Below are positions 640-55,198 of a stretch of 64,000 nucleotides of DNA, in pieces. The translations under genes were made by a program, and so were the position numbers. Where the stretch lies: positions 4,024-68,023 of the forward strand of contig JAZDKW010000010.1 in NCBI GenBank assembly GCA_043802665.1, in the 5' to 3' direction. The notes beneath the pieces are model-generated. The model ran no database searches. It saw only the letters and a list, made by a program, of their open reading frames with translations, and was not told the DNA's origin. This DNA is from Patescibacteria group bacterium (GTDB lineage: Bacteria > Patescibacteriota > Kazan-3B-28 > UBA10110). Every line of letters begins with the position of its first letter. The stretch's first letter is position 1.

Positions 640-2157
640 TTACTCTAAATAATCTTTTAATTTTTTGCTATCTTTAGACTTCTTCAATTTAGCAAGGGCC
701 TTGGCTTCAATTTGACGAATACGTTCACGGGTAACTCCAAACTCCCTGCCTACCTCTTCCAAAGTATGCGCCCATTCCCCATCCAAACCAAAGCGCATCT
801 TTAGGATCCTTTGCTCCCGAGGAGTTAGCAGATGCAAGACAGTGCTGATATCTGATTTCAATAGATCCTGGGCTGATTGTTCGTCTGGTGTCAAACTATC
901 CTCGTCTTTGATGAAGTCACCCAATAAACTATCGTCCTCGTCACCAACAGATTTCTCCAACGATACAGTCTCCTGCGAAATCTTGAGGATATGATTAACC
1001 TTTTCTATCTCCAAACCCATTTCGTTAGCGATCTCTTCCGGCGAAGGCGGCCGACCTAATTCTTGCACCAATTGCCGTTGGGTGCGCGCCAACCGATTCA
1101 TCGTTTCAACCATATGCACCGGGATGCGAATCGTTCGAGCTTGATCGGCAATCGCCCGCGTAATCGCTTGCTTAATCCACCAGGTAGCATAAGTCGAAAA
1201 CTTAAAACCACGTTTGTAATCAAATTTGTCTACTGCCTTCATTAGACCGATGTTCCCCTCCTGAATCAAATCCAAGAGTGACAATCCGCGACCAATATAT
1301 TTCTTGGCGATGCTCACAACCAAACGCAAGTTAGCCTCCGCCAACTGCTTCGCCGCCATTTTATCACCGGCGGCCACACGCTTGGCTAACGCCACCTCTT
1401 CTGGTTTCTTCAACAGCGCAATCTGCCCGATCTCCTTAAGATACATCCTGACGGAATCTTCCCCGATTGCTTCCGTAGACTCCTCTGCACTCAAGCCTTT
1501 TTTGGTGGGCTTTTTGCTTTTTTTAACCTTCTTTGTCGCCACATCCGATGCACCCGTTTGCCAGATCAAATCCTCTCGCAGATCCACTACTTCGATACTT
1601 AGATCAAAGAAGGCTTCATATAATCTATCCAGCAGTTCAATGTTGTGCTCTGCATCTGGAACAGCTTGATTAAGTTCCTGCTGGGTAATAAAATTCTGAT
1701 CTTGCCCTTTTAGTAACAAGAACTCTACCTCGGACGGAAAATGGTACTTCTTTATCCGGTCCTTGAAACTTCTAACATCATCGAGTTCGTCTACTAATTC
1801 CAGCTCGGGCTCTTGCCCTTCTGTTCCAACAACCTTGGCTTCTATTTCCTCTGTCTTCGTTGTGGAGGCAAGTTCTTGGGATACATTTTTCTTTCGGGCC
1901 ACCTTTAGATTGCCGAATGGCCCCCGCAAAAGTGCGGTGGCAGTTTTTTTGGCCACTTTTTTTACTCGGCCCAGGCCCAGAGCCGCTTTTTTCACTTGCT
2001 TGGCCGGCTTCTTTGCCGACTTAGTCGCCTTCTTGGCTAACTTGACCTTCTTTTTCAAAGGCCGAAGTTGGCGCTTTTGCGCCTTATCACGAGTTTTTTT
2101 GCCCCGCCCAGTTGACCGGGAACGGGTCCCTTTGGTCAGGGATTTTTTCTTTGCCAT
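640..2157 (-). CDS. rpoD: RNA polymerase sigma-70 factor RpoD with a roughly 150-aa Lys-rich N-terminal extension.
   Basis: Regions 2, 3 and 4 of sigma-70 are recognisable: [16 protein letters not shown] and [27 protein letters not shown]. Confidence 0.92.
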
Positions 2158-2172
2158 ATGCTAATAGAATAA

Positions 2173-3954
2173 TTAAAATTGTCGGTTAAATTCCTCTAAA
2201 AGCTCTTTGAGTTTGACAGCGTTACCCGCTATCTCCGCCTCATTAATCTGGAGATTCAGATTGGCCATAGCTTGCCGCACCGAGCGTTGTTTCAATAAAT
2301 TGACGTAAAATTTCAGCTCCTGCGCCACCTCATCCGGTGGCATCTCGGCATAATATTCCTCAACCATTACCAGCATTTCCAGAAGGTCTACTTTGTCTTG
2401 GTACTCTAATTGTTCAATAAACCCGTCTAAGGAAAATTCTTTCCCAGTATAGCAATTTTTTAGCTCTGCGTAAACTTTTTTGCTTAGCGCATCGGGCCAA
2501 GTTACCTGATCTAAAGTTTCTTTAATCTCCTCTAATTGTTTTGGGCTGAAAACTAACATCCCTATAATCCGCCGTTCCAGCCAATCCGCCCTCTCCGTCG
2601 GCTTAGCCACCTCGTTTGGCATCACTCCGGACCGTTGAAAAGCCTTGCCAGGCCGCTCTCGTCTGATTCCTCCTCCTGGCCTGCGCTTAGCCTCTAATCC
2701 TTTTAGTGCCTCATACAAATTGGCCTGACTAACATCCAATGCCGACGACAGTTTTTTCACATATTGATCCTTCTCCACTGGGCTGGCTAACAGATTAATA
2801 GTCGGCAAAACCTCGGCCGCCACCTTTTTTTTGTCATTCACTGAAGACAAGCCGTATTTCTTAACAGCATAATCAATATAAAAATCCACGATCGGTACAG
2901 CCGCCTCCACTACCGCTCGCCATTTGGCCGGATCGGCCTTAGCGCATTCATCTGGATCTTTATATCCTTCTTCCAGAATTGCTACTTTAATCTCCAGATC
3001 ACTTTGCGAAGCTAATTCAATCGCCCGCTTGGTCGCTTCACTTCCCGCTCCATCCGCATCTAACGCTAAAATTAAAGTTTCGGCATAACGGCGAATCGTT
3101 TCTAATTGCTCCACGGTTAACGCTGTACCGGAAGAAGCCACCACATTCTGCACTCCAGCCTGATAAGACGACAGGGCATCCATTTGCCCTTCCACCAACA
3201 CTGCCGCTTTCTTTTCTTGAATCGCCTCCTTGGTAACAGATAAACCGTACAAAATTCTGCCCTTGTTAAAGAGGGGTGTTTCGGGAGAATTTAGATACTT
3301 GGGCTGATCCTTAGAATCCAACACCCGCCCCGTAAATCCAACCACCTTGCCACTGATGTCTGCGATCGGGAATATTAGACGGTGACGGAATTTATCTACC
3401 ACGTTGCCCCCTCGCCGAGACAGTAACCCTGCTTTTTCGCTATCTTCGCGGGTATAACCCCGTCGCGTCAGAAATTTAGCTAAATAATCCCATCCTGCCG
3501 GTGCATAACCCAGACGAAACTTCTTAGCCGTTTCTGCCGATAGTCCCCGATTAACCAAATAATTCATCGCTTGCCGCCCAGCGGTGCTATCTACCATATA
3601 TTTACCGAAAAACTTGGCCGCCAGCTCGTTAATAGCAAAGAGTTTGCTTTTTATCCCCCAATCCCTCGGCCGAGTTTTGAGTTCTACCCCAACCCGTTCC
3701 GCCAGTTGTGAAAGAGCTTCACCAAACTCTAACCCCTCTTTTTTCATCAAAAAACCAAAGACGTCTCCCCCAGCCCCACATCCAAAACAGTGCCAGATTT
3801 GCTTATCCGGGCTCACAATGAGCGAAGGGTCTTTATCTCCGTGAAATGGGCAAACCGCCCGAAAATTCCTTCCGGCCTTTTTCAAGGGTAAATATTGCCC
3901 AACAAACTCGACAATATCTACCTTGGCTTTGATCTCGTCTAACTGATCCATCAC
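2173..3954 (-). CDS. dnaG: DNA primase DnaG.
   Basis: Zinc-ribbon CPFHGDKDPSLIV…WHCFGCGAGGD and TOPRIM EGQMDALS; sits in the conserved dnaG-rpoD arrangement. Confidence 0.92.
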   Translation of the reverse strand: MMDQLDEIKAKVDIVEFVGQYLPLKKAGRNFRAVCPFHGDKDPSLIVSPDKQIWHCFGCGAGGDVFGFLMKKEGLEFGEALSQLAERVGVELKTRPRDWGIKSKLFAINELAAKFFGKYMVDSTAGRQAMNYLVNRGLSAETAKKFRLGYAPAGWDYLAKFLTRRGYTREDSEKAGLLSRRGGNVVDKFRHRLIFPIADISGKVVGFTGRVLDSKDQPKYLNSPETPLFNKGRILYGLSVTKEAIQEKKAAVLVEGQMDALSSYQAGVQNVVASSGTALTVEQLETIRRYAETLILALDADGAGSEATKRAIELASQSDLEIKVAILEEGYKDPDECAKADPAKWRAVVEAAVPIVDFYIDYAVKKYGLSSVNDKKKVAAEVLPTINLLASPVEKDQYVKKLSSALDVSQANLYEALKGLEAKRRPGGGIRRERPGKAFQRSGVMPNEVAKPTERADWLERRIIGMLVFSPKQLEEIKETLDQVTWPDALSKKVYAELKNCYTGKEFSLDGFIEQLEYQDKVDLLEMLVMVEEYYAEMPPDEVAQELKFYVNLLKQRSVRQAMANLNLQINEAEIAGNAVKLKELLEEFNRQF

Positions 3955-5925: not shown

Positions 5926-6264
5926 TTATAGTTGGTGCAACTTTCTTGGCTGCACCGTGGTATTGGCAGTTATCAAAGCAATAGCCATTGCCAGCATTGC
6001 CTGACGAACTTCGAATTTAAGATCGTCTGGGAATACTTCTTTGGATTCCCAAATTAACTTTGCTACCTCAGGATAGTTTGCTCTGAGGTATCTATTAATT
6101 TCGGTGATCTCGCTGTTTTTCAGTTCCTTGATCAATTCATCGCACGAAGATATTGATATCTTCTTCGGCAAACCACCCTCAAGGACTTTGATTACCGCAT
6201 GAGCTCCAAAGCTCTTTTGTCTTATTGACATACTGAATTCTCCTCCATGAGATATAAGGTGCAA
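5926..6264 (-). CDS. Hypothetical protein.
   Basis: 112-aa ORF followed by the terminator; no recognisable motif. Confidence 0.3.
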   Translation of the reverse strand: MHLISHGGEFSMSIRQKSFGAHAVIKVLEGGLPKKISISSCDELIKELKNSEITEINRYLRANYPEVAKLIWESKEVFPDDLKFEVRQAMLAMAIALITANTTVQPRKLHQL

Positions 6265-6430
6265 AATTTTGACAGACTTATACTATAAACCTTTACTCCT
6301 GATCAGTCAAGAGTATTCACAAAAACCACCCTTTTATCATCTGGCCACACCTTCATTTCCATCGGCTGGCGGATGACAAACAGTGAAAATAAAAACCCTG
6401 GGTTTAGCCCGTGAACAACTGCGAGTTTCC

Positions 6431-6714: not shown

Positions 6715-7893
6715 TTATTTTTTGTTCTTTTTGTGTACACCGTTTAGCCCCGGATTTTGTCTAATAATTTTCAGGTAAATTTTTATTAGCTTCCCGGCAA
6801 TTGCTTTGCTAGAAAATCTATGCGCCGTACGGCAAGCCGCCCGCGACAAACGGTAGCGTAGTGTCTTGTTCTGCAATAATTTATTAACCACTGCTATCGC
6901 TTCGTCTTGTGAATTGACCAAAAACCCATTTTGATTATTTTTGATTATTTCCGGCGCCACTCCTACTGGATAAGTCACAGGGATCAGTCCACAAGCCATT
7001 CCTTCCACTAAACTTAAGGAAAAACCTTCGTAGCGCGAAGGGATAAACAAAATACTTCCTGCCAAAGGACGAAGTAAGACAGGCAGACGGTCTTTCTTTA
7101 CATTAGTAAATAAAGCATGATTAGGTATGGCCCCACGCATCCAGTGGATTAATTTCTTGTTGGTGGTAATACAAAATGTCAATTTTTTGACATTAGGAAA
7201 TTGACGGTATAAATGCACCAGCCGATCCATGCCTTTGAGTTTTAAAGTAAAAGCATCATTTCCCAGCCGCCCCAAAAAAACAATGTCTGCCTGATCCCTA
7301 CATCTTTGAGCTCTTTTTGCTAACCAGTAATCCTCAATAGCATTGTGCACTAAATAAACTTTATTTTTATTTACTTTCATCGACAGGAGTTCTTGCTTGA
7401 CCGATTCTGACGTAGCAATCACAGCGGCCGCTCGCAAAGCCACATATTCTTCCACATCGGCAATATCCCGAAGTGGACGACGGGTTTTAATATCTAATTC
7501 CCCAATGGCTCCCTGTTTGCGCAAATCATACCAAGTTCTGCTGGTTTCCGCTTTTAACCTACGCGATAGAGGGACATTATTTAAAAACCCCTGGGTGGTT
7601 GACCCAAAGTGGCTTACTACCGGTCTATGAAAAGCCAAAAATGGCAACGGCGTGTATGTTGTACCCTGAATGATGTCAAATTTTAAAATTTCATTACGCT
7701 GTTCTAATAAAGAATAAAAAAATAGAATATTTTTCATACCGCCCAAGTAGACCGGAGTGTTAGTCAAAGATATGCGGGGATAAAAGTTTCTTATCTCTAC
7801 CCCCCGCTCTCTCAGTTTGGCAACCATTAAATCATTGATGTAATGAGCGCCTGTACCAATTTTCTTCTCATTGTGAATAAAAGCGATCTTCAT
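6715..7893 (-). CDS. Family 1 (GT4-type) glycosyltransferase.
   Basis: C-terminal EGFSLSLVEGMACGLIPV E-x7-E motif. Confidence 0.8.
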   Translation of the reverse strand: MKIAFIHNEKKIGTGAHYINDLMVAKLRERGVEIRNFYPRISLTNTPVYLGGMKNILFFYSLLEQRNEILKFDIIQGTTYTPLPFLAFHRPVVSHFGSTTQGFLNNVPLSRRLKAETSRTWYDLRKQGAIGELDIKTRRPLRDIADVEEYVALRAAAVIATSESVKQELLSMKVNKNKVYLVHNAIEDYWLAKRAQRCRDQADIVFLGRLGNDAFTLKLKGMDRLVHLYRQFPNVKKLTFCITTNKKLIHWMRGAIPNHALFTNVKKDRLPVLLRPLAGSILFIPSRYEGFSLSLVEGMACGLIPVTYPVGVAPEIIKNNQNGFLVNSQDEAIAVVNKLLQNKTLRYRLSRAACRTAHRFSSKAIAGKLIKIYLKIIRQNPGLNGVHKKNKK

Positions 7894-8092: not shown

Positions 8093-9136
8093 ATGAAAGA
8101 CGTCGTCATGAAAGATGTAATTATCCGTAGCACCGGGAGTTACACTCCTGATGATCGATTAACTAATGCTTGGTTCATAGAGCACCTCGATACCACCAAT
8201 GAATGGATTGTTAAGCGCACCGGGATCAAGGAAAGACGGAGAGCCGTCCCTGGAGAGACTACCTCAGATATGGGATACCAAGCCGTTAAACGGTGTCTGG
8301 AAAAAGCCAATGTCAAACCATCCGAAATTGGTTTACTCATTTGTGCAACGGTCACCGGGGACACTAATTTCCCCGCTACGGGGAAATGGATCCAGGCCAA
8401 GTTTAAGTTTAAGCATTTCGACTGTTGGTCCTGGGACCTCAAGTCCGGTTGCACATCATTTTTGGATGCTTTGGCCCCCGCCGCCGCTATGTTGCAAACG
8501 GGTATGGTTAAATACGCCGTGGTGGTCGCGGCAGAGATGATGACCAGCTTGGCTAATTACCAGGACCGAGCAACCTGTATTTTGTTCGGAGACGCCGCCG
8601 CGTGCGTATTGCTCGAGGCAGTTGATCCTTCGGAAAATCCCTTCGGTTACGGGATAAAGAATTTCCACTTCGACAGTGATCCGACTAAAACAGATTTATT
8701 GATACAACTTGCTGGCGGATCCAAAGAGCCAATTACCCAAGCCAATATAGCTTCTGGCCGACAATATTTGCATATGGATGGTAATCGGGTATATCGGGCC
8801 GCGGTAAATTCTATGGTTGCGTCGGCAAAGAAAATTTCTGAACAAGCTGGCCTCCGGGTGACTGATTTCGATTGGTGGGTATTCCATCAAGCCAATCAGC
8901 GCATCTCCGAAGAAGTAGCCCGGAGATTGCGGCTTCCCTTCGATAGGGTTTTTAATAATATTGCGGAGTTTGGTAACACCTCTGGTGCCACTCTGCCATT
9001 GTGCTTGGATCAAATGGCTACCCAAGGATTATTGCACCCGGGCCAACAAATCGGCTTCATTAGCTTCGGCACCGGCTTTTCCGGGGCAGGATGCCGAATT
9101 TCCATTGGGCATCTCCCTGAAACCGCTAAAAAGTGA
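8093..9136 (+). CDS. fabH: 3-oxoacyl-ACP synthase III (KAS III, FabH).
   Basis: Catalytic triad context: SGCTSFLDAL (Cys), HQANQRI (His), FGNTSGATLP (Asn). Confidence 0.85.
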   Translation: MKDVVMKDVIIRSTGSYTPDDRLTNAWFIEHLDTTNEWIVKRTGIKERRRAVPGETTSDMGYQAVKRCLEKANVKPSEIGLLICATVTGDTNFPATGKWIQAKFKFKHFDCWSWDLKSGCTSFLDALAPAAAMLQTGMVKYAVVVAAEMMTSLANYQDRATCILFGDAAACVLLEAVDPSENPFGYGIKNFHFDSDPTKTDLLIQLAGGSKEPITQANIASGRQYLHMDGNRVYRAAVNSMVASAKKISEQAGLRVTDFDWWVFHQANQRISEEVARRLRLPFDRVFNNIAEFGNTSGATLPLCLDQMATQGLLHPGQQIGFISFGTGFSGAGCRISIGHLPETAKK

Positions 9137-34135: not shown

Positions 34136-36496
34136 TTAATAGAAATTAATAATTTTATCCAGTACAAACTTATAATTCTTGTTTTCAACTAATTCCGCCA
34201 GTTTGGGATCTTGTTTAATTGCCGCAAGGACCTCTCCCTCATTCGCACCAGCTGGCATTTCCACGATACCCCGCTTTTTCCCGGTTTCCTGTACCACCAA
34301 GGTCACAAAGGTCAATTTGGCTTTAGCGGCATTAGCCTCTGGCCAACGAGTACTAAGCACACTCCCCTTTTTGCCCAAAACTCCCTGCCAAAGTTCTTCG
34401 GCCAAGTGCGGAGCAAACGGTGCTAACAAAATGATGAAATTTTCTATCCAACCGTTACTTTTGCAGTCAGCAATCGCCCCATTGATAAAAATCATAAAGG
34501 TACTAACCGCCGTATTAAAATGAAGCTCTTCTATATCTTTAGTAATTTTAATGATCAACCGATGCATATCGTTTTCTTTGCTATCATCCTGGGGCAACTT
34601 CACCCTTTCTTGAATTAAGCGATATGTCCGATCCAAGAATTTCTTTACTCCCTCAATCCCGGCCGTGCTCCACGGGATCGGCTGATCAAACGGTCCCATA
34701 AACATTTCGTACATCCTGAGGGCATCTGCGCCAAAACCTTCCACCACTTCATCTGGGTTAATGACATTGCCTTTGGATTTGCTCATTTTTTCACCGTTTT
34801 CACCTAAAATCAGCCCCTGATGACGCAATTTCAAGAACGGCTCATCAAAACTTAAGTAACCCAATTTATGCAGAACTTTAGTAATAAATCTAGCAAATAT
34901 TAGGTGCCCTGTGGCATGCTCCGCACCCCCAATATAGATATCCACGGGTAGCCAATACTTTAATTTATCAGGGTCAGCGAATTCTCTATTGTTTTGGGGG
35001 TCGGCATAGCGTAGATAATACCACGATGAGCAAACAAAAGTATCTAATGTATCGTACTCTCGTCGTACTGCTTTGGGATACCCCGCAGGCAATTTTTTAA
35101 ATTCTTCGGAATAAGTTAAGGGTGATTCGCCGGTAGGCCTAAACTCTACGTCGGTCGGCAAAATCACGGGCAGATCTTCCATTTTGATTGGAATCGGATT
35201 TTCATTTTTGTCATACAAAATAGGAATTGGTGTCCCCCAGTATCTTTGCCTACTCACCAACCAATCTCGCAACCGATATTTTATGGTAATTTCTCCGCCT
35301 ACCAGCTTAGTAATCGCTTTGCTTGCATCACTGTAATCTATCCCGTCAAACTTCCCGGAATTGATTAGTTTGCCAGTACCAGTAAACGGTAATTCTCCGT
35401 CGCCTGAGATAACTTCTTTAATTGATAAATCAAACTTTTGGGCAAAAACAAAATCACGCATATCGTGAGCAGGTACACACATTACTGCGCCATATCCGTA
35501 ACCAGCCAGTACATAATCCGCTACCCAAATAGGGATTTTTTCGTTATTAGCCGGATTAATCGCATAAGCTCCGGTAAAAACACCTGTTTTGTCTTTGGTT
35601 TCGGCTATCCGATCTAATTCGGTTTTCTTTGCAGTAGTTTCCTGATATTTTTTGACTTCCGTTTTGTATTCATCGGTTACAATGTTATCTAAATCAGTAT
35701 ATTCCGGCGCTAATACCATATAAGTGGCACCAAATAATGTATCTGGCCGGGTAGTAAAAACCTTTATCTTCATATCAGAGTCTTTGACCTGGAACTCAAT
35801 ATCTGCGCCTTCGGATTTACCGATCCAATTACGTTGGATCTCTTTAGTGCTCTCCGGCCAATCTAATTTGCCTAACCCTGCAATTAAATCTTCAGCAAAA
35901 TCAGTGATCTTGAAAAACCACTGTTTGCGTTTTTCCTGCACTACGGCTGTGCCGCACCGTTCACAACACCCCCCTACCACCTGTTCATTCGCTAATACAG
36001 TTTTGTCATTAGGACACCAATTTACAAATGCCTCTTTTTGATAGGCCAAACCATTTTTATAGAGCTCCAGGAATAACCACTGGGTCCATTTATAATATTC
36101 CGGGTCAGAAGTGACAATTTGCCGGCTCCAATCATAAGAAAGGCCCAACATATTAAGCTGTTGGCTAAAACGTGTGATGTTTTGAGCAGTATTCTCCGCT
36201 GGTGGCACCCCTTTTTTGATGGCCGCGTTTTCGGCAGGCAAACCAAACGCATCAAACCCTACCGGGTGCAATATACTGAAGCCATTTAGTCTAAAATAAT
36301 GCGACAAAATATCGCTGGCAGTGTAACTTCTGGGATGCCCAACATGTAATCCATCCCCCGAGGGGTATGGGAACATATCTAAAACGTATTTTTTATCCCC
36401 TGCTTCCTTTGCCAAAAATAACTGGTTTTTCTCCCAATATTTCTGCCATTTAGCATCCAATTTCTGGTGGTCGTATTTTTCCTTTATCTCTGCCAT
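34136..36496 (-). CDS. leuS: Leucyl-tRNA synthetase.
   Basis: HVGHP (HIGH-class) and KMSKSKGN motifs. Confidence 0.92.
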   Translation of the reverse strand: MAEIKEKYDHQKLDAKWQKYWEKNQLFLAKEAGDKKYVLDMFPYPSGDGLHVGHPRSYTASDILSHYFRLNGFSILHPVGFDAFGLPAENAAIKKGVPPAENTAQNITRFSQQLNMLGLSYDWSRQIVTSDPEYYKWTQWLFLELYKNGLAYQKEAFVNWCPNDKTVLANEQVVGGCCERCGTAVVQEKRKQWFFKITDFAEDLIAGLGKLDWPESTKEIQRNWIGKSEGADIEFQVKDSDMKIKVFTTRPDTLFGATYMVLAPEYTDLDNIVTDEYKTEVKKYQETTAKKTELDRIAETKDKTGVFTGAYAINPANNEKIPIWVADYVLAGYGYGAVMCVPAHDMRDFVFAQKFDLSIKEVISGDGELPFTGTGKLINSGKFDGIDYSDASKAITKLVGGEITIKYRLRDWLVSRQRYWGTPIPILYDKNENPIPIKMEDLPVILPTDVEFRPTGESPLTYSEEFKKLPAGYPKAVRREYDTLDTFVCSSWYYLRYADPQNNREFADPDKLKYWLPVDIYIGGAEHATGHLIFARFITKVLHKLGYLSFDEPFLKLRHQGLILGENGEKMSKSKGNVINPDEVVEGFGADALRMYEMFMGPFDQPIPWSTAGIEGVKKFLDRTYRLIQERVKLPQDDSKENDMHRLIIKITKDIEELHFNTAVSTFMIFINGAIADCKSNGWIENFIILLAPFAPHLAEELWQGVLGKKGSVLSTRWPEANAAKAKLTFVTLVVQETGKKRGIVEMPAGANEGEVLAAIKQDPKLAELVENKNYKFVLDKIINFY

Positions 36497-37668: not shown

Positions 37669-39021
37669 ATGAATACCTCTATCCAATTTTTAGGAGCCTG
37701 CGGCACCGTCACGGGCTCTAATTACCTCATTACTTTAGGGGAAACGAGGTTCTTGGTCGATTGCGGTCTGTTCCAAGGAGATTGGGCCAATCAACAACAT
37801 AACTACGAACCCTTCGCCTTCAATCCCCAAGAAATTGATTTTATGGTCTTAACCCATGCTCATTTAGACCACTGCGGCCGAATCCCCAAGCTTTACCGCG
37901 AAGGTTTCCGCGGAAAAATATATTGCACCCCCGCCACCGCCGAGCTCACCAAGACTATCCTCACTGATGCCGCGCAGATCCAGGAACATGGAGTACGCGA
38001 AGAACAAATTGAGGAATTATTTAACAGGCAAGATGCTACAGGTGCCACCAAGCTTTTCCACCGACTGGACTACCAAAATGAATTTAAAATTAATCCCAAG
38101 ATTAAGCTCCGCTTGCAGGATGCCGGACATATTTTAGGCTCTGCTATAGTAGAACTCTGGGTAGAAGACAAGAAATTAGTTTTTTCGGGTGATTTAGGAA
38201 ACAGCCCTGTTCCTATTCTCCGCGATCCTGCCATAATTCACGAAGCAGACTACGTTATTTGCGAATCCACTTATGGTAACCGCTTGCATACTCCTTTGCA
38301 AAATCGGGAGAAAGATCTTCTCCAGGCCGCTCTTTTTGCCAAACAACATAAAGCAGTGGCTATCGTCCCCTCTTTCGCACTCGAACGAACCCAAGACCTT
38401 TTATACACAATCAATTTATTAATCAACCAAGGCAAGTTCCCTAAAATACCAGTAATTTTAGACAGCCCCTTAGCCGCAACCATCACCACTATCTATAAAA
38501 AGTACACTCATTTATTTGATGAAACTTTTCAAAAATACCTCAAAGACGACCCCGATCTTTTCGATTTCCCTGGATTGCAAATTACCACTACTGCCGTGCA
38601 ATCCAAAAAACTTAATACTTTTGATAAAGCGGCGATGATTATCGCCGGTTCCGGTATGGCTGATGCGGGCCGGGTACCCCACCACATCTTGCACCATGGG
38701 AGTAATCCAAATACCCAAATCCTATTCACCGGCTTTCAGGTTCCTGGAACGTTGGGCCGCAAGATCTTGGAAGGAGCCAAGCGAATTCAGGCCTACGGAC
38801 AATCCACTACCATAAAGGCTAAGGTAGCCAATATCGAAGCCTTCTCTTCTCATGCTGACCAAGCAGGCATCCTTAAATGGTTAGGAGGATTTCGTACCCA
38901 TCCTCAAGTTTTTGTGACCCATGGCGACGATGAACCCCGCCAAATACTCTCGGGAAAAATAAGCCAAGAACTCAAACTCAAAAACCACCAGCCCACCCTG
39001 AAAGAAATTATCCAGCTTTAG
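37669..39021 (+). CDS. Beta-CASP family MBL-fold ribonuclease (RNase J/CPSF-like).
   Basis: VLTHAHLDHCGRIP (HxHxDH), later motifs and RMMBL-like C-terminus. Confidence 0.75.
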   Translation: MNTSIQFLGACGTVTGSNYLITLGETRFLVDCGLFQGDWANQQHNYEPFAFNPQEIDFMVLTHAHLDHCGRIPKLYREGFRGKIYCTPATAELTKTILTDAAQIQEHGVREEQIEELFNRQDATGATKLFHRLDYQNEFKINPKIKLRLQDAGHILGSAIVELWVEDKKLVFSGDLGNSPVPILRDPAIIHEADYVICESTYGNRLHTPLQNREKDLLQAALFAKQHKAVAIVPSFALERTQDLLYTINLLINQGKFPKIPVILDSPLAATITTIYKKYTHLFDETFQKYLKDDPDLFDFPGLQITTTAVQSKKLNTFDKAAMIIAGSGMADAGRVPHHILHHGSNPNTQILFTGFQVPGTLGRKILEGAKRIQAYGQSTTIKAKVANIEAFSSHADQAGILKWLGGFRTHPQVFVTHGDDEPRQILSGKISQELKLKNHQPTLKEIIQL

Positions 39022-49784: not shown

Positions 49785-50375
49785 CTATACTTTGAGAAAA
49801 CGGTTAATTCGATCAATCCAATCTTCGTCTTGACGATTTACTTCCGGAACAAACTGACTAAGCGCCTGGCGCAAAGAGGAAAGGTCTTGGGCATTAATTA
49901 ATATAGTGATGACGGGCATCAGACGAAAAGTGGAGATAACATTTAAATAGTTTTTGCCAGATTTATTATGAAACCAAAAACCTTTTAACTGTTCGAACGT
50001 CAATGTTCGCTCGTTGATATGTAGCCCTGCACTATCCAGCCGGTACTGCATCCGACGAGGTTTCAGCCGACCCGAAATTAATAATAACCCAGCTACGACT
50101 ACTGCCATCGCTAATAAAATCCACTGTCGCGCGTACCAACTATAGCCACCTACCACTAAAAAGGCGGCGATAAGAATAGTGTACCAACGCCAATCTCGCC
50201 GGTGCACTTCGAACTCTTCTGCCTGCCAAACTATCGGCTCAAAAGTAGATTGAGGAACTATTGGTTGCTCGGGTTGTTCTATCGGCTCTTGCGATAATTG
50301 TTCCTGTTGCTCCTGCGGCTCTTGTAATGGTTGTTCTTGTTCATCCATAAGTAAATACTCCCTTAAAAATAACAC
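49785..50375 (-). CDS. Membrane protein with Gln/Glu-rich N-terminus and two TM helices (hypothetical).
   Basis: ORF features only. Confidence 0.35.
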   Translation of the reverse strand: MLFLREYLLMDEQEQPLQEPQEQQEQLSQEPIEQPEQPIVPQSTFEPIVWQAEEFEVHRRDWRWYTILIAAFLVVGGYSWYARQWILLAMAVVVAGLLLISGRLKPRRMQYRLDSAGLHINERTLTFEQLKGFWFHNKSGKNYLNVISTFRLMPVITILINAQDLSSLRQALSQFVPEVNRQDEDWIDRINRFLKV

Positions 50376-50545
50376 CTGCCCCTGGTCTGATTATATGGCA
50401 TATCCAGGGAATACTAAAGAGTACTCGGGATCCAACCCATCCCTAAGCAATTTCAGCCTAAGCATTGTGATTTCGAATAAACCTTGCTCTGGGACACAAT
50501 TTCTGCTATATTCCGTTTGTCATATCGCGATCCCATACATCAGGT

Positions 50546-51121
50546 ATGACTATCCTGTTTTTTGAAAAAGAGGTGACCTATAAAATGAATAGATCAATTG
50601 TTGTTCTTTTGTTATGCACTCTGGCAGTGGCAACCATCTTTACCGTAACCTCCTGCAAAGGGAATATAAAAGGCGCTGGAGTTCCCCAAGAACCGGGCCA
50701 CTATCTGTATGATGGTAGTAAATGGAATAAGATCCCGACAGATAATATGATTACAGGTGGTGGGCAGATTAGTCTTGACCGGTTTAATAATGGAACAATG
50801 TTCGCTGTCCATGCCGGTAAACTCAAGTATGCTTACCGTATGACGCCCACTGAGATGAAAAGCGCAGGCAGTCCACTGAGTAATGTTTCGGATATCACTG
50901 TGAACCACATAGGGATCTTCCCTTTGTGCAATGCTCAGAACAATCAGGCTTTAGAATTTATATCATCAGGGTATACACAAAGCAACGGTATTGATAAATC
51001 TGATTACTCCGCCGGTTATGTGTTAATGGAGTATGACAGACTACCCGCTTCCCCAATTGGCAAATATTGGATGCACATTTTAGTGGCACCTGGTTATGGC
51101 ATAGGAATAATATCTCAATAA
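50546..51121 (+). CDS. Putative lipoprotein (hypothetical).
   Basis: Signal plus lipobox-like VTSC. Confidence 0.35.
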   Translation: MTILFFEKEVTYKMNRSIVVLLLCTLAVATIFTVTSCKGNIKGAGVPQEPGHYLYDGSKWNKIPTDNMITGGGQISLDRFNNGTMFAVHAGKLKYAYRMTPTEMKSAGSPLSNVSDITVNHIGIFPLCNAQNNQALEFISSGYTQSNGIDKSDYSAGYVLMEYDRLPASPIGKYWMHILVAPGYGIGIISQ

Positions 51122-51225: not shown

Positions 51226-51900
51226 TTATTTTAGGTTATTACTATGTTTGCCTGCGAGATGTCTTAATGATGATTTGGTCAGGGCAAACCCATAGATATC
51301 CTGGAAATTATAGGCAAATTGACGCGCGGTGGTATGGGAATCGACAGTCCGGATTAATTGCAATAATTTATTCTGGGGATACTTATCCAATAAATACTTC
51401 ACCCAATAATAACCTACTCCGTAGACTTTTTGCCCACCTACATTAAAGAAACCATTTAAGGATATTAGATCTCCCTCGGCCGGAATTGTTTTATTCTGCC
51501 CAGCCAAATAACAAGCTAACCCCTCATTTAACCATCTTGGTTTTCCAGTATTACTATCCGTAATAATATGGTAATACAGATGAACATATTCATGGACCAA
51601 GACTTGCCAAAATTGGCCGGCCGTATGATCGGATTCTTTGGCAAATACTTTAGGATCAAGGATATAAATTGTTTCTGATTTAGTCCAAGCACACAGCCAG
51701 CTCTCGGTTTTTTTGCCCCAAAATTTGTCGATCTCTCGTCGAGATTGGAGTAACACCACTGGCGGTAATTCTAGTTTGATACCAAAAAATTTATTCAGCT
51801 TTTTTTGAGCTAACTTAAGCGCAGAAATCACCTTGGGATCTCGAGTAGAAGTTGATTTGAAATTAGAGATGCTCATACCATAAGAATACCAGAAAAGCAC
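51226..51900 (-). CDS. Small gluzincin-type zinc metallopeptidase (M1-like HEXXH-X18-E).
   Basis: QVLVHEYVHLYYHIITDSNTGKPRWLNEGLACY: HExxH, exactly 18 residues, then a WLNEGxAxY-like third ligand. Confidence 0.5.
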   Translation of the reverse strand: MLFWYSYGMSISNFKSTSTRDPKVISALKLAQKKLNKFFGIKLELPPVVLLQSRREIDKFWGKKTESWLCAWTKSETIYILDPKVFAKESDHTAGQFWQVLVHEYVHLYYHIITDSNTGKPRWLNEGLACYLAGQNKTIPAEGDLISLNGFFNVGGQKVYGVGYYWVKYLLDKYPQNKLLQLIRTVDSHTTARQFAYNFQDIYGFALTKSSLRHLAGKHSNNLK

Positions 51901-51959: not shown

Positions 51960-52487
51960 TTATTTTGAATAAACCATCTGGAGAGTTTCGGGCTGGCAAG
52001 GATTCTTGGGGTATTTTTTAATACCTCGGGGTTGAAATCCGACTTTTCCATAAGCCTTAACGGCACGAATGTTTTCTGGCCTTACTTCTAAATATATTCT
52101 ATGGATATCCAACCCTTTAGCCTTAGCCAGCAATAGCTTGATCGCTTTAACCCCATATCCCTTGCCCCAATATTTCTTATTGCCAATTACTATCTGGGTC
52201 TCGTAATTATCATCCTTTCTTTTCCCTAAGGAAATATGACCAATGGTTTGTTTGTTTAAATCGACCATGAAATGATGATCTGTTTTACTGCCCAGCATAT
52301 CGTGAAAATATTCTTCTACTTCCGCATCGTAAATCGGCTTAAAATCTCCGCTGGTGAGTGTAATTAGATCTTTATCTCTCCACCACTTCCGGAAATATCC
52401 GATATCTCCAGATCTGATCTTTCTTAAAGTTATCTTGTTCATAAGGTAATTATAACAACTTGTCCAATAACAATATTTTTCCAACAC
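51960..52487 (-). CDS. GNAT-family N-acetyltransferase (RimJ/RimL-like). GTG start at 52487; alternative ATG at 52442.
   Basis: …QIVIGNKKYWGKGYGVKAIKLLLAKA… acetyl-CoA-binding motif Q/RxxGxG/A. Confidence 0.75.
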   Translation of the reverse strand: MLEKYCYWTSCYNYLMNKITLRKIRSGDIGYFRKWWRDKDLITLTSGDFKPIYDAEVEEYFHDMLGSKTDHHFMVDLNKQTIGHISLGKRKDDNYETQIVIGNKKYWGKGYGVKAIKLLLAKAKGLDIHRIYLEVRPENIRAVKAYGKVGFQPRGIKKYPKNPCQPETLQMVYSK

Positions 52488-52556: not shown

Positions 52557-52582
52557 AGCCGCCTCATTATAAGGCGGCTACA
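52557..52582 (-). terminator. Intrinsic terminator immediately after the precursor-peptide gene.
   Basis: Minus strand: AGCCGCCttataatgAGGCGGCTTTTCTCTTTTCTT. Confidence 0.6.
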
Positions 52583-52598
52583 CCGCGGTCTACCACAC

Positions 52599-52769
52599 TT
52601 AGCCGACACATCGGCAACTGGGACCGCCGGAATCGCAATCGCATGGATCACAATTGCAGTCGCAATTGTCACATGTGATACCGCGTTCCGTTAACTGTGG
52701 GGTGTTAATTGTGGATACAGCTGCCATGTCAATGATGGTTTCGAAGCCACAACCTGACAGATTATCCAT
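52599..52769 (-). CDS. Cys/Asp-rich precursor peptide (56 aa from ATG 52769; the ORF track extends to GTG 52790). The sequence is MDNLSGCGFETIIDMAAVSTINTPQLTERGITCDNCDCNCDPCDCDSGGPSCRCVG.
   Basis: GGGGA ribosome-binding site 7 nt upstream; starts 15 nt after the stop of the radical-SAM gene; nine Cys; terminator follows. Confidence 0.6.
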   Translation of the reverse strand: MDNLSGCGFETIIDMAAVSTINTPQLTERGITCDNCDCNCDPCDCDSGGPSCRCVG

Positions 52770-52783
52770 AGTATCATCCCCTT

Positions 52784-54115
52784 TCAGCACGATATTAATA
52801 TCCTCTGTTGATAGAGTGCTGATACAAACTTGGGTAGCAATAGCTCTGTGAGCTTATTCAAGCTACATGGAAACTCAAAAGTATTTATACGATCAGCGAA
52901 TAAGAATCTGGTTGCCTCCTCATTTAAGAAAGCGGCACACTGATTACCAATATAAACTATAGAGCCAAAATTCTCTTTACGCCAACGCAAATCTGGGTTA
53001 AGCGCTAGATTATTCGGCAACATAACAGAATCGTCTTGGAATTGCTTCAATTTATAGAAACTCTCCAAAGCATCTTGTGCATCAGATGGACTCACAAGAG
53101 AATCCTCGGCACCAAACTCCCCATTGATAACCTCGGCTTCCGCTCGACACCCTCCCCCACAAATCAAGAGCGCTTTGCACTTTTTACAAATCGGGGGTAT
53201 TAATGAACCGTCTCTCCACTCGTACATTCTTTGCCAAATAGCACACAGCGATTCATTGAAGATATTGCCATGACTAATGCTGACATGAGTGCAGACTCTT
53301 ACTTGTCCTAGCGCGGATACAGCTACAGCAGTGATGCCAGCCGAACATCTCTTTCCAGCTACCATGTGGTAACGGAAAACATCTTTGATAGCACATAGAG
53401 GATACACGGTCAAGACCCCTGTTCTTAGATTATATTCTTTCTCCAATTGGACTAGATCTTCCAAATAACTGCGTAATTCCATTAAATCTAACGAATATTC
53501 CCTAAATCCGGCACAACCTGACGGACATGTTGCTCTCGTGACATTAAAATTACTTATCCCGAGACTACGAACTAATTGTGCGGTTTCTCTAATGTAGTGC
53601 TGATTCAGGTGAGATACGACCATATTAACAGAAACATTCACTTGATTCTCTTTCAATAATCGTATGCCTTTGATCGTCTCTTGAAATGATCCGGATCTCT
53701 GTGCTATGTCATCATGAATCTTCTCATTCTGCCCCATGATCGACACTAAAACACTAGTGAGATGTTTATACCGACTTAATGCCTTAGCATCATCATTATC
53801 AAGGTTAATTAATGTAGAATTGACACTCGCTACGGCCAATGTGCTCTTTTCTATCCGATCCAGAGCACAGTACAGAGATTCTTTGTTCATCAGGGGCTCT
53901 CCTCCAGTCAGTACTACATAGAACACCTGAGACCTCTCTAATTCATCCAAAACATGCTCTGTTTGATTCAGAGACATTTGGGCACATTTCTCGGAGAGGT
54001 CAGAAGTCTTAACATCCTTTCTGCGCCAATAGTTATAGCAATGTATGCAATTATTTGGACACAGACTAGATATCTCCAACTGAACAGTTAGCGGAGATGA
54101 TAGGGTTTTGTACAT
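52784..54115 (-). CDS. Radical SAM enzyme with a C-terminal SPASM/twitch auxiliary Fe-S domain. Probable start is MYKTLSSP at 54115 with an AAGGAGG ribosome-binding site; the ORF track extends to 54175.
   Basis: CPNNCIHC (Cx3Cx2C) 18 aa from the N-terminus; C-terminal CKKCKALLICGGGC (Cx2Cx5Cx3C); a further roughly 120-aa C-terminal domain. Confidence 0.85.
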   Translation of the reverse strand: MYKTLSSPLTVQLEISSLCPNNCIHCYNYWRRKDVKTSDLSEKCAQMSLNQTEHVLDELERSQVFYVVLTGGEPLMNKESLYCALDRIEKSTLAVASVNSTLINLDNDDAKALSRYKHLTSVLVSIMGQNEKIHDDIAQRSGSFQETIKGIRLLKENQVNVSVNMVVSHLNQHYIRETAQLVRSLGISNFNVTRATCPSGCAGFREYSLDLMELRSYLEDLVQLEKEYNLRTGVLTVYPLCAIKDVFRYHMVAGKRCSAGITAVAVSALGQVRVCTHVSISHGNIFNESLCAIWQRMYEWRDGSLIPPICKKCKALLICGGGCRAEAEVINGEFGAEDSLVSPSDAQDALESFYKLKQFQDDSVMLPNNLALNPDLRWRKENFGSIVYIGNQCAAFLNEEATRFLFADRINTFEFPCSLNKLTELLLPKFVSALYQQRILISC

Positions 54116-54382
54116 AGTTAACCCCTCCTTATTGTTCGATTTATCAAAGGGCTTTATTATAATACCAGAAAGCAAAAACTATGTCCAGATAACACTTTTT
54201 GCCGAAAATTATTATAAAAATTAATAAAGGGGGGCAACTTAGACAGGTTTCTGCGATCTTTACACCATCCTGACTGTTCAGGCAAGCAGGATATCATTTT
54301 TAAACATTATCCTGAGTTATTAAAGAATATTAATGCCGGACAGGTCGCTCTAATAAACTACGCAGGGCGGTCTTCGCTTTTA

Positions 54383-54613
54383 TTAAAAATGTTTCTTCAA
54401 AAATGCCCGACCAGAACCTGACTTAAAATACTTTTCTAATTCAAAAGCTTTATATTTGTCTTGAAGCGCTATATAAAAACAAAGTTTTACTGGTAAACGG
54501 TCTTTGGTTGCTGAAACATAGCCTTTTCGATGTCTATTGACTCTATCTTTCAAGTCATCAGTGCAACCTATATAATAACCTTCTCGACATTTCAGCGAAT
54601 AAATATAATACAT
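54383..54613 (-). CDS. Small GIY-YIG nuclease (UPF0213-like), copy 1.
   Basis: MYYIYSLKCREGYYIGCTDDLKDRVNRHRKG. Confidence 0.7.
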   Translation of the reverse strand: MYYIYSLKCREGYYIGCTDDLKDRVNRHRKGYVSATKDRLPVKLCFYIALQDKYKAFELEKYFKSGSGRAFLKKHF

Positions 54614-54732: not shown

Positions 54733-54824
54733 TGGCGGAGAGGGTGGGATTCGAACCCACGATACCCCTTACGGGGTATGCCAGTTTTCAAGACTAGTGC
54801 CTTCAACCGCTCGGCCACCTCTCC
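54733..54824 (-). tRNA. tRNA-Ser (anticodon TGA).
   Basis: GGAGAGG-TG-GCC-GAGCGGTTGAA-GGC-A-CTAGT-CTTGAAA-ACTGG-[variable hairpin]-GTGGGTTCGAATCCCAC-CCTCTCC-GCCA. Confidence 0.85.
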
Positions 54825-54845: not shown

Positions 54846-54938
54846 TGGCGGTGAGGGAGGGATTCGAACCCTCGCGGGGAATTGCTTCCCCCTACCGGTT
54901 TAGCAAACCAGCCCCTTCAGCCTCTTGGGTACCTCACC
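54846..54938 (-). tRNA. tRNA-Ser (anticodon GCT).
   Basis: GGTGAGG-TA-CCC-AAGAGGCTGAA-GGG-G-CTGGT-TTGCTAA-ACCGG-[variable hairpin]-GAGGGTTCGAATCCCTC-CCTCACC-GCCA. Confidence 0.85.
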
Positions 54939-54958: not shown

Positions 54959-55198
54959 TTATTTTAATCTACGATGCAAATCTTTGTGCCCATCGCTGGA
55001 CTTCAAGAACCTTTCTCTTCTCTGAGCTATCAGTTTATCTTGGTAGGCTTCATAGCAAACCAACACAAACGGGATTCTATATTTAGTAGATGTTACTTTG
55101 CCGGCTTGATGCTCAGCAAATCTTGATTTTAAATTATCGGTTGAGCCAATGTAATATTTACCATCTTTGTTACTTTTTAGCACATAGACATAATGCAT
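54959..55198 (-). CDS. Small GIY-YIG nuclease (UPF0213-like), copy 2.
   Basis: MHYVYVLKSNKDGKYYIGSTDNLKSRFAEHQAGK. Confidence 0.7.
   Translation of the reverse strand: MHYVYVLKSNKDGKYYIGSTDNLKSRFAEHQAGKVTSTKYRIPFVLVCYEAYQDKLIAQRRERFLKSSDGHKDLHRRLK

Follow-up and report, generated by a model that had tools for sequence, protein, structure and literature searches.

We analysed a 64,000-nucleotide stretch of DNA from a Patescibacteria group bacterium (GenBank assembly GCA_043802665.1, contig JAZDKW010000010.1, positions 4,024 to 68,023), hereafter the window, in which a preliminary description had singled out a small, Cys-rich open reading frame (ORF) as the precursor peptide for an adjoining radical S-adenosylmethionine (SAM) enzyme. 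On the minus strand of the window, a gene for a radical-SAM/SPASM maturase (52784..54115) is followed by the peptide gene (52599..52769) and, further downstream, by a gene for a zincin and putative leader peptidase (51226..51900). The small ORF is a real gene for a Cys- and Asp-rich peptide, as indicated by its sequence, its ribosome-binding site (RBS), the conservation of the small ORF in related loci, the alignment of its subfamily and the ratio of non-synonymous to synonymous substitution rates (dN/dS).

The ORF had been placed at 52599..52790 (−), overlapping the stop codon of the radical-SAM gene, and translation bore this out. Read from its outermost start codon, a GTG at 52790 that overlaps the TGA stop of the upstream gene (52786..52784), the long ORF yields MLKGDDTMDNLSGCGFETIIDMAAVSTINTPQLTERGITCDNCDCNCDPCDCDSGGPSCRCVG. 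An internal ATG at 52769, before which the preliminary description had also noted an RBS, lies 14 nt past the enzyme stop and has this RBS, AAAGGGGA, 8 nt upstream; the likely product is therefore a peptide of 56 amino acids, encoded together with its stop codon by 52599..52769. An intrinsic-terminator-like hairpin with a T-run (52557..52579, −), described earlier as lying within 20 nt, begins 19 nt past the peptide stop. The hairpin, AGCCGCCTTATAATGAGGCGGCT, has a stem of 10 pairs, 6 of them G-C, and a 3-nt loop, and is followed by the tail TTTCTCTTTT.

The peptide consists of a leader (approximately residues 1–30), which contains the string GFETIID, and a 26-residue core, ITCDNCDCNCDPCDCDSGGPSCRCVG, with 8 Cys, 5 Asp and 2 Asn. 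Some details of the preliminary description needed revision. It had counted nine Cys in the core, the ninth of which lies in the leader (SGCGF), outside the core. It had drawn the leader as ending in a Gly directly before the core, having dropped the residues 'IT' from its strings; with these restored, the first Cys has the Gly at position −3. No such Gly is conserved among relatives in the subfamily alignment, and a leader ending in Gly as a cleavage cue is not supported. What had been called a strict Cys-Asp alternation is instead a pair of diverged 7-residue units, CDNCDCN and CDPCDCD.

The ORF listed for the upstream enzyme extends to a TTG at 54175 and encodes 463 amino acids, 20 of which, at the N terminus, are found in no homologue. 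Homologues begin MYKxLS, and AAGGAGG stands before the ATG at 54115, which makes the 443-amino-acid protein that starts at this ATG the likely true product (residue numbers below follow the 463-amino-acid version). The enzyme matches the Pfam models Radical_SAM (PF04055, 70 bits), SPASM (PF13186, 24.6 bits, cut-off 21.5) and Fer4_12. Its CxxxCxxC motif (C39, C43 and C46) and seven Cys of the SPASM domain (C261, C277, C295, C330, C333, C339 and C343) are invariant in 113 aligned homologues. An AlphaFold model was obtained with confidence (predicted local distance difference test score (pLDDT) of 91.8), and its nearest folds are SuiB, anSME, CteB, SkfB, ChlB and TigE. The best sequence relatives among solved structures are SkfB, at the top with E = 2.5e-31, PqqE, SuiB and TigE. 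More than 1,000 homologues were found, the best being 47–49% identical and most of the named ones coming from Patescibacteria; the protein, genome and metagenome collections held no relative above 53% identity. Among its 25 best NCBIfam matches, the enzyme scored far under the cut-off of every equivalog, including AhbD (100 bits, cut-off 500), ScmE (89, cut-off 400) and GeoRSP (84, cut-off 400).

Residues 380–463 of the enzyme (window 52787..53038) have no Pfam match and are predicted to form a β-sheet followed by three helices. By fold, this domain corresponds to a recognition element (RRE), a PqqD-like winged helix, of the kind found in pathways for peptides that are made on ribosomes and modified post-translationally (RiPPs). 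In addition, a shared R-x-E-x-F-G strand gives the profile of the enzyme family a weak alignment to the RREs at the N termini of SuiB and TigE. As judged from the structural model, the enzyme carries an RRE at its C terminus. In solved SPASM peptide maturases the RRE is N-terminal, at the opposite end from that seen here. A C-terminal RRE has been reported for proteusin epimerases, which are not SPASM enzymes (PMC8326336).

To follow the small ORF across genomes, we scanned one genome per species with the enzyme; 222 loci were returned and 80 were kept, among them 44 with Patescibacteria-group names, 6 archaeal and 10 unclassified by record label. A small ORF was counted if its final 35 residues included 4 or more Cys and it started within a few dozen bases of the enzyme stop. 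A short Cys-rich ORF directly after the enzyme was present in 58 of the 80 loci, and about 8 further loci have one just upstream of the enzyme or past the zincin gene, giving a total of ~66. Small Cys-rich ORFs were also found in further metagenome loci. The peptides of the closest relatives end in YRFESLIDPNALSKDQRKLVNNKTENRACDPCNCDASDCNCRCN (L001), VFESLLDKESLNAEQRAVASTADVSNQACDPCDCNHCDPGECRCN (L082), YRFESLLDGDALSDSQRMLVSRNTENQACDPCDCNEGDCNCNCN (L084), YGFTSLVDGQKLNEQQRRLIGGKGENRACDPCDCNCNEASDCNCRCN (L086) and YQFGSLLDSNALTERQRELVSGSVDSSPSCDCDPCDCDASDCTCNCNG (L087). In an alignment of six members of this subfamily, F9, D14, R29, the motif CDPCxC and a C-terminal CxC are common to all, and the extra CDNCDCN of the window peptide looks like a duplicated unit. 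In close pairs in which synonymous sites are unsaturated, dN/dS of the small ORF is 0.08–0.27; its frame is therefore under purifying selection.

These comparisons bear directly on the preliminary description, which would have been refuted by the absence of the small ORF beside orthologous enzymes or by a disrupted frame in close relatives. The ORF recurs beside the enzyme, and its frame is intact in the subfamily alignment and constrained by dN/dS, the nearest enzymes available being only 47–53% identical. The claim that the peptide is the precursor for the adjoining radical-SAM/SPASM enzyme stands on this conserved adjacency, on the RRE of the enzyme and on purifying selection; the ORF is very probably a genuine precursor that the enzyme modifies.

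We also considered whether the ORF might be no gene at all, its Cys-rich frame having arisen by chance in the radical-SAM gene's 3′ untranslated region. This would fit the failure of database searches: a word-indexed protein-database search with the window peptide gave zero candidates, an exhaustive phmmer search against 1.84 billion representatives returned one spurious repeat protein only, and neither the window peptide nor 43 relatives matched Pfam or NCBIfam models beyond composition-level noise. Set against this are the position kept in ~66 of 80 loci across phyla, the common leader motif, the dN/dS values and the ORF's own RBS and terminator. Among 12,131 random frames of 25–150 codons in related loci, 124 (1%) contain 5 or more Cys among the final 30 residues; a third of these (45) lie exactly at the radical-SAM-adjacent position, and ~10 others are further peptide genes. 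The non-gene explanation is hardly credible and is already contradicted by the comparative data. Within the 64-kb window, only one other frame exceeds 6 Cys in 26 residues. This frame, 50254..50565 (+), has 10 Cys in 26 residues (CSGCSIGSCDNCSCCSCGSCNGCSCS) and is antisense to the Gln/Glu-rich coding repeat at the N terminus of ORF 49785..50375 (−). It was rejected as a second precursor, being most likely an artefact that mirrors this repeat.

Across 62–65 non-redundant peptides, the family shares an N-terminal leader motif, F-E-[ST]-L-[LI]-D, and has a hypervariable core with a median of 21 residues and 6 Cys. Cores are composed of 26.6% Cys, 19.6% Asp, 9.1% Gly, 8.0% Asn, 6.8% Ser and 5.0% Glu, whereas Cys makes up 0.4% of leaders. 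Cys-Cys spacing is mostly 1 or 2 residues, and Cys is the only near-invariant core residue. Asp occupies the +1 position of Cys in 170 of 383 cases (z ~10 relative to within-core shuffles of non-Cys residues, a value inflated by relatedness, with the pattern present in several subfamilies). At +1 there is also a strong deficit of Gly and Ser, and position −1 shows no enrichment of any residue. The Cys-Asp pair is therefore a directional motif and not mere composition, and the ordered dipeptide is a unit of the whole family and not, as the preliminary description had suggested, a peculiarity of the window peptide.

The third conserved gene of the cassette is the zincin. Its product in the window (51226..51900, −) has an HExxH...E motif, matches Peptidase_MA_2 (PF13485, E = 2.3e-11) and is a putative leader peptidase. 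When the ORFs of 81 loci were clustered all against all, only two families of neighbours recurred. Both have HExxH followed by a Glu ~20 residues on; one is the Peptidase_MA_2 family and the other lacks a Pfam match. In 62 of 81 loci, one or the other stands beside the enzyme or the peptide, and all 65 members examined have HExxH. Homology between the two was not demonstrated by hhalign, which gave a probability of 12% with an alignment centred on HExxH...E. Between the peptide terminator and the zincin gene, the window contains a GNAT acetyltransferase gene (51960..52487, −; Acetyltransf_3, RimI-like below cut-off). It was considered as a tailoring enzyme and rejected as a member of the cassette, as no GNAT recurs in the 80 loci. 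No conserved transporter or exporter, immunity gene or second tailoring enzyme was found across the clustered loci.

The composition of the cores and the lack of a conserved exporter raise the question of whether the peptide is modified at its thiols at all. It could instead be a metal- or Fe-S-binding peptide with free thiols, akin to metallothioneins or phytochelatins, which the enzyme alters in another way (epimerization, C-C links or oxidation) or uses as a partner. Cores with 27% Cys and 20% Asp, together with Gly, Asn and Ser, resemble thiol/carboxylate chelators; core length and sequence vary while composition stays constant, and the absence of a conserved exporter fits an intracellular role. 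However, a leader matched by an RRE, together with a linked peptidase, is characteristic of enzymatic processing, simple chelation does not need an order-specific Cys-Asp motif, and linkage to a radical-SAM enzyme in more than 60 genomes would go unexplained if the peptide were unmodified. We regard a free-thiol chelator as quite unlikely.

We favour a different explanation, in which the peptides are probably a new family of thioether-cross-linked, ranthipeptide-like RiPPs. The locus has the general make-up of a RiPP cassette, with an adjoining short precursor, a conserved leader, a variable core and an RRE in the enzyme, and the enzyme has the CxxxCxxC motif and Cys-rich SPASM domain of radical-SAM/SPASM maturases. 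The 56-amino-acid product of 52599..52769 would be the substrate, and the leader block F-E-[ST]-L-[LI]-D would dock on the RRE fused to the enzyme C terminus. The SAM cluster and auxiliary Fe-S clusters would then abstract hydrogen and join Cys thiols to carbons of nearby residues. The likeliest acceptor would be the β-carbon of the Asp or Asn next after each Cys, so that several small thioether rings of the ranthipeptide type would form, and the HExxH zincin, in its presumed role as a peptidase, would finally remove the leader.

Two features of the cores point in this direction. As the sole near-invariant core residue, Cys most likely supplies the group that reacts. An acceptor role for Asp would agree with the directional Cys-Asp motif, so that several small, non-α thioether rings are favoured. 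Where SPASM enzymes are known to act on Cys-rich peptides, they form thioethers. For example, PapB links Cys to Asp or Glu and accepts Cys-Xn-Asp with n = 0–6 (PMC9413430). QhpD forms Cys-Asp (C-β) and Cys-Glu (C-γ) thioethers, and NxxcB joins Cys to Asn (PMC8326336). For the bond itself, we put a thioether to a side-chain carbon at about an even chance, and we hold any exact ring topology with less confidence than that.

Several observations weigh against the proposed chemistry. The enzyme scores under the cut-off of every curated thioether family (PapB, AlbA and SkfB), and their chemistry is therefore not transferable by homology. Some subfamilies lack any core Asp and have Tyr, His or Ala in its place (ACYCHCACACHV), and others are Pro-rich; Asp therefore cannot be the universal acceptor. 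In the window, the terminator and the non-conserved GNAT gene separate the zincin gene from the peptide gene. The lack of a conserved exporter or immunity gene would also be unusual for a secreted antimicrobial RiPP.

The Asp-free cores would be more easily accommodated if the same enzyme-substrate pair made sactipeptide-type links, from sulfur to the α-carbon and not to β- or γ-carbons, as the acceptor could then be set by position and not by side chain. The solved structure that matches best by sequence is that of a sactisynthase, SkfB, and CteB and SkfB are among the best fold matches. By contrast, in known sactipeptides the donor Cys and the acceptors occupy opposite halves, forming a hairpin, whereas here Cys occurs every 1–2 residues throughout, and the strong +1 preference for Asp points to a role for the side chain. 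The sactipeptide-maturase models are also far from reached (AlbA NF012164, 66.5 bits, cut-off 850; SkfB TIGR04403, 50.1, cut-off 300; StsB NF045574, 59.1, cut-off 625). We consider α-carbon links unlikely.

A further possibility is that the peptide is the source of a cofactor, with a small redox-active molecule excised for intracellular use in the manner of pyrroloquinoline quinone (PQQ) or mycofactocin. The gene logic is the same, namely peptide, SPASM enzyme, RRE and peptidase without a transporter, and PqqE and MftC are among the family matches of the enzyme. These matches stay well below cut-off, at 70.4 bits against 381 for PqqE (TIGR02109) and 75.8 against 265 for MftC (TIGR03962), and cofactor precursors have strictly conserved cores, whereas the cores here are hypervariable in both length and sequence. 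With no invariant core and no qualifying enzyme score, the cassette falls outside the PqqE/MftC systems, and a cofactor precursor is very improbable.

Returning to the ranthipeptide-like reading, the closest parallel is the freyrasin system PapA-PapB of Paenibacillus polymyxa, in which a radical-SAM/SPASM maturase acts on a short precursor with repeated Cys and Asp in its core. PapB forms thioethers from Cys sulfur to the Asp β-carbon, and its tolerance of Cys-Xn-Asp with n = 0–6 covers the adjacent Cys-Asp seen here (PMC9413430). Unlike freyrasin, with its six regular CX3D units, the window family has Asp at +1 and Cys every 1–2 residues, and it differs from the PapB system in its C-terminal RRE, its HExxH zincin partner and its hosts, which are Patescibacteria and other uncultured lineages. 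The enzyme scores 66.4 bits against the PapB model NF047865 (cut-off 340), and the cores, with their dominant Cys spacing of 1–2 residues, have no regular CX3D/E repeat, which places the cassette outside the PapB/freyrasin family. QhpD offers a second parallel, as this SPASM enzyme introduces several Cys-Asp and Cys-Glu thioethers into QhpC, a small polypeptide rich in Cys that remains within the cell envelope (PMC8326336). QhpC is a subunit of quinohemoprotein amine dehydrogenase encoded in the dehydrogenase operon; no such genes are present here, and the cores of the window family are hypervariable.

The cassette resembles the SCIFF system (CteA/CteB, Tte1186) in that the core lies at the C terminus and is rich in Cys, the maturase is a SPASM enzyme and the gene set is minimal, without an obvious exporter. 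The preliminary description had held the peptide to be unlike SCIFF, and this was upheld: the SCIFF peptide model TIGR03973 matched neither the window peptide nor any of the 43 relatives, no other curated peptide model matched, and the SCIFF maturase model is outside the 25 best enzyme matches. CteB aligns by sequence only over the radical-SAM core and has an N-terminal RRE, and SCIFF cores are conserved and not Asp-rich, in contrast to the hypervariable cores here. Among sactipeptide systems, SkfA/SkfB and SboA/AlbA share the logic of a thioether formed from Cys, and SkfB is the top solved sequence match. They differ in having an N-terminal RRE or none, in the placement of Cys and in the export and immunity genes of their clusters, and the enzyme is below the curated cut-off of all three maturase models (AlbA, SkfB and StsB). 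It is likewise not an anSME, scoring 53 bits against 349 for TIGR03942, with no sulfatase nearby and with an RRE, which anSME lacks.

A looser likeness exists to FibroRumin (TIGR04135), CXXX-repeat (TIGR04114), GeoRSP, ACGX and SynChlorMet, bioinformatically defined systems of unassigned chemistry that also pair a SPASM enzyme with a short Cys-rich peptide. One of the 43 peptides touches TIGR04135 (E = 0.012) and one TIGR04114 (E = 0.13), consistent with composition-driven matches, and the enzyme reaches 76–89 bits against cut-offs of 400 for the NCBIfam maturases of Cys-rich targets. Judged by sequence, the cassette appears to work like ranthipeptide, SCIFF and sactipeptide systems, yet it falls outside every curated family checked. 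Its distinguishing features are an RRE at the C terminus of the enzyme, cores built on the Cys-Asp dipeptide, a zincin as partner, no exporter and its phyletic range.

As to this range, same-type peptides were seen in loci labelled as archaeal metagenome-assembled genomes (MAGs; L033, L045 and L059), Bdellovibrionota (L031 and L055) and Omnitrophica (L037). Going by record titles, with MAG labels unverified, the cassette thus extends to archaea of DPANN type as well as to Bdellovibrionota and Omnitrophica. Its arrangement varies. In Levybacteria-type loci (L019 6026..6310, L021 6050..6373 and L026 6050..6331) the order is enzyme, zincin and peptide, and the cores are Pro/Cys-rich (for example, PPCVGKPPPPCVGKPPPPCYGAPPCVG) instead of Asp-rich, with the leader motif FVSIL kept. 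Some loci have extra Cys/Asp-rich small ORFs several kilobases from the enzyme, at 8720..8944 (+) and 7163..7333 (−) in L035 and at 2157..2393 (−) and 6072..6365 (+) in L052; one ORF of this type has 11 Cys (ADCDCETDCASQCSQQCDRDCDCECGGDCYDCDCECQCQCSDCRN). L035 also has two zincin genes, and one 'Deltaproteobacteria' MAG has three separate cassettes (L054, L064 and L077).

Upstream of the cassette in the window, a promoter-like site (TGGACA-17-TATTAT with an extended TG, 54159..54187, −) lies ~44 nt from ATG 54115 and agrees at 10 of 12 positions; it is weak evidence, as the total of such sites in the region is not above that in shuffled sequence. Directly upstream of the radical-SAM operon, a pair of tRNA-Ser genes (54733..54824 and 54846..54938) is flanked on either side by a small GIY-YIG ORF (54383..54613 and 54959..55198, −), and L084 has a GIY-YIG gene near its cassette too. 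The window also encodes DnaE, LeuS (34136..36496), DnaG, RpoD and a Clp ATPase, and the locus is chromosomal. A database protein labelled 'Patescibacteria group bacterium' is 100% identical to this LeuS, in keeping with a Patescibacteria MAG as the host, whereas exact look-ups in a contig index with LeuS, the enzyme and the peptide (from either start codon) returned no record. A β-CASP/metallo-β-lactamase nuclease (37669..39021, +) scores 382 bits against the NCBIfam model 'type VII CRISPR-associated Cas14' (cut-off 800) and 266 bits against aCPSF1, and is probably an RNase J-like housekeeping enzyme.

No description of the family was found in the open-access full-text literature, which is absence of evidence and not proof of novelty. 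Specialists would hardly be surprised by a Cys-rich peptide beside a SPASM enzyme; what makes the family a worthwhile experimental target is its breadth in Patescibacteria, together with its unusual core. We raise, as a tentative and rather doubtful proposal, that a minimal three-gene cassette of C-terminal-RRE SPASM enzyme, poly-(Cys-Asp) peptide and zincin makes an undescribed class of product across Patescibacteria. If true, this class would be either a ladder of very small thioether rings, each Cys joined to the next Asp, or a ribosomal, phytochelatin-like thiol/carboxylate chelator. It would be used intracellularly or at the host interface by organisms with almost no secondary metabolism otherwise.

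For annotation, the cassette reveals a family of precursors that at present escapes both gene callers and family libraries. For enzymology, the family provides natural substrates with directly adjacent Cys and Asp, an arrangement that, to our knowledge, has so far been explored only with engineered PapB substrates. Patescibacteria have tiny genomes with very few recognizable biosynthetic genes, and despite this the cassette recurs in many of their lineages, as a defined peptide-enzyme pair within three small genes. It thereby allows one to ask what role modified peptides play in episymbiotic bacteria.

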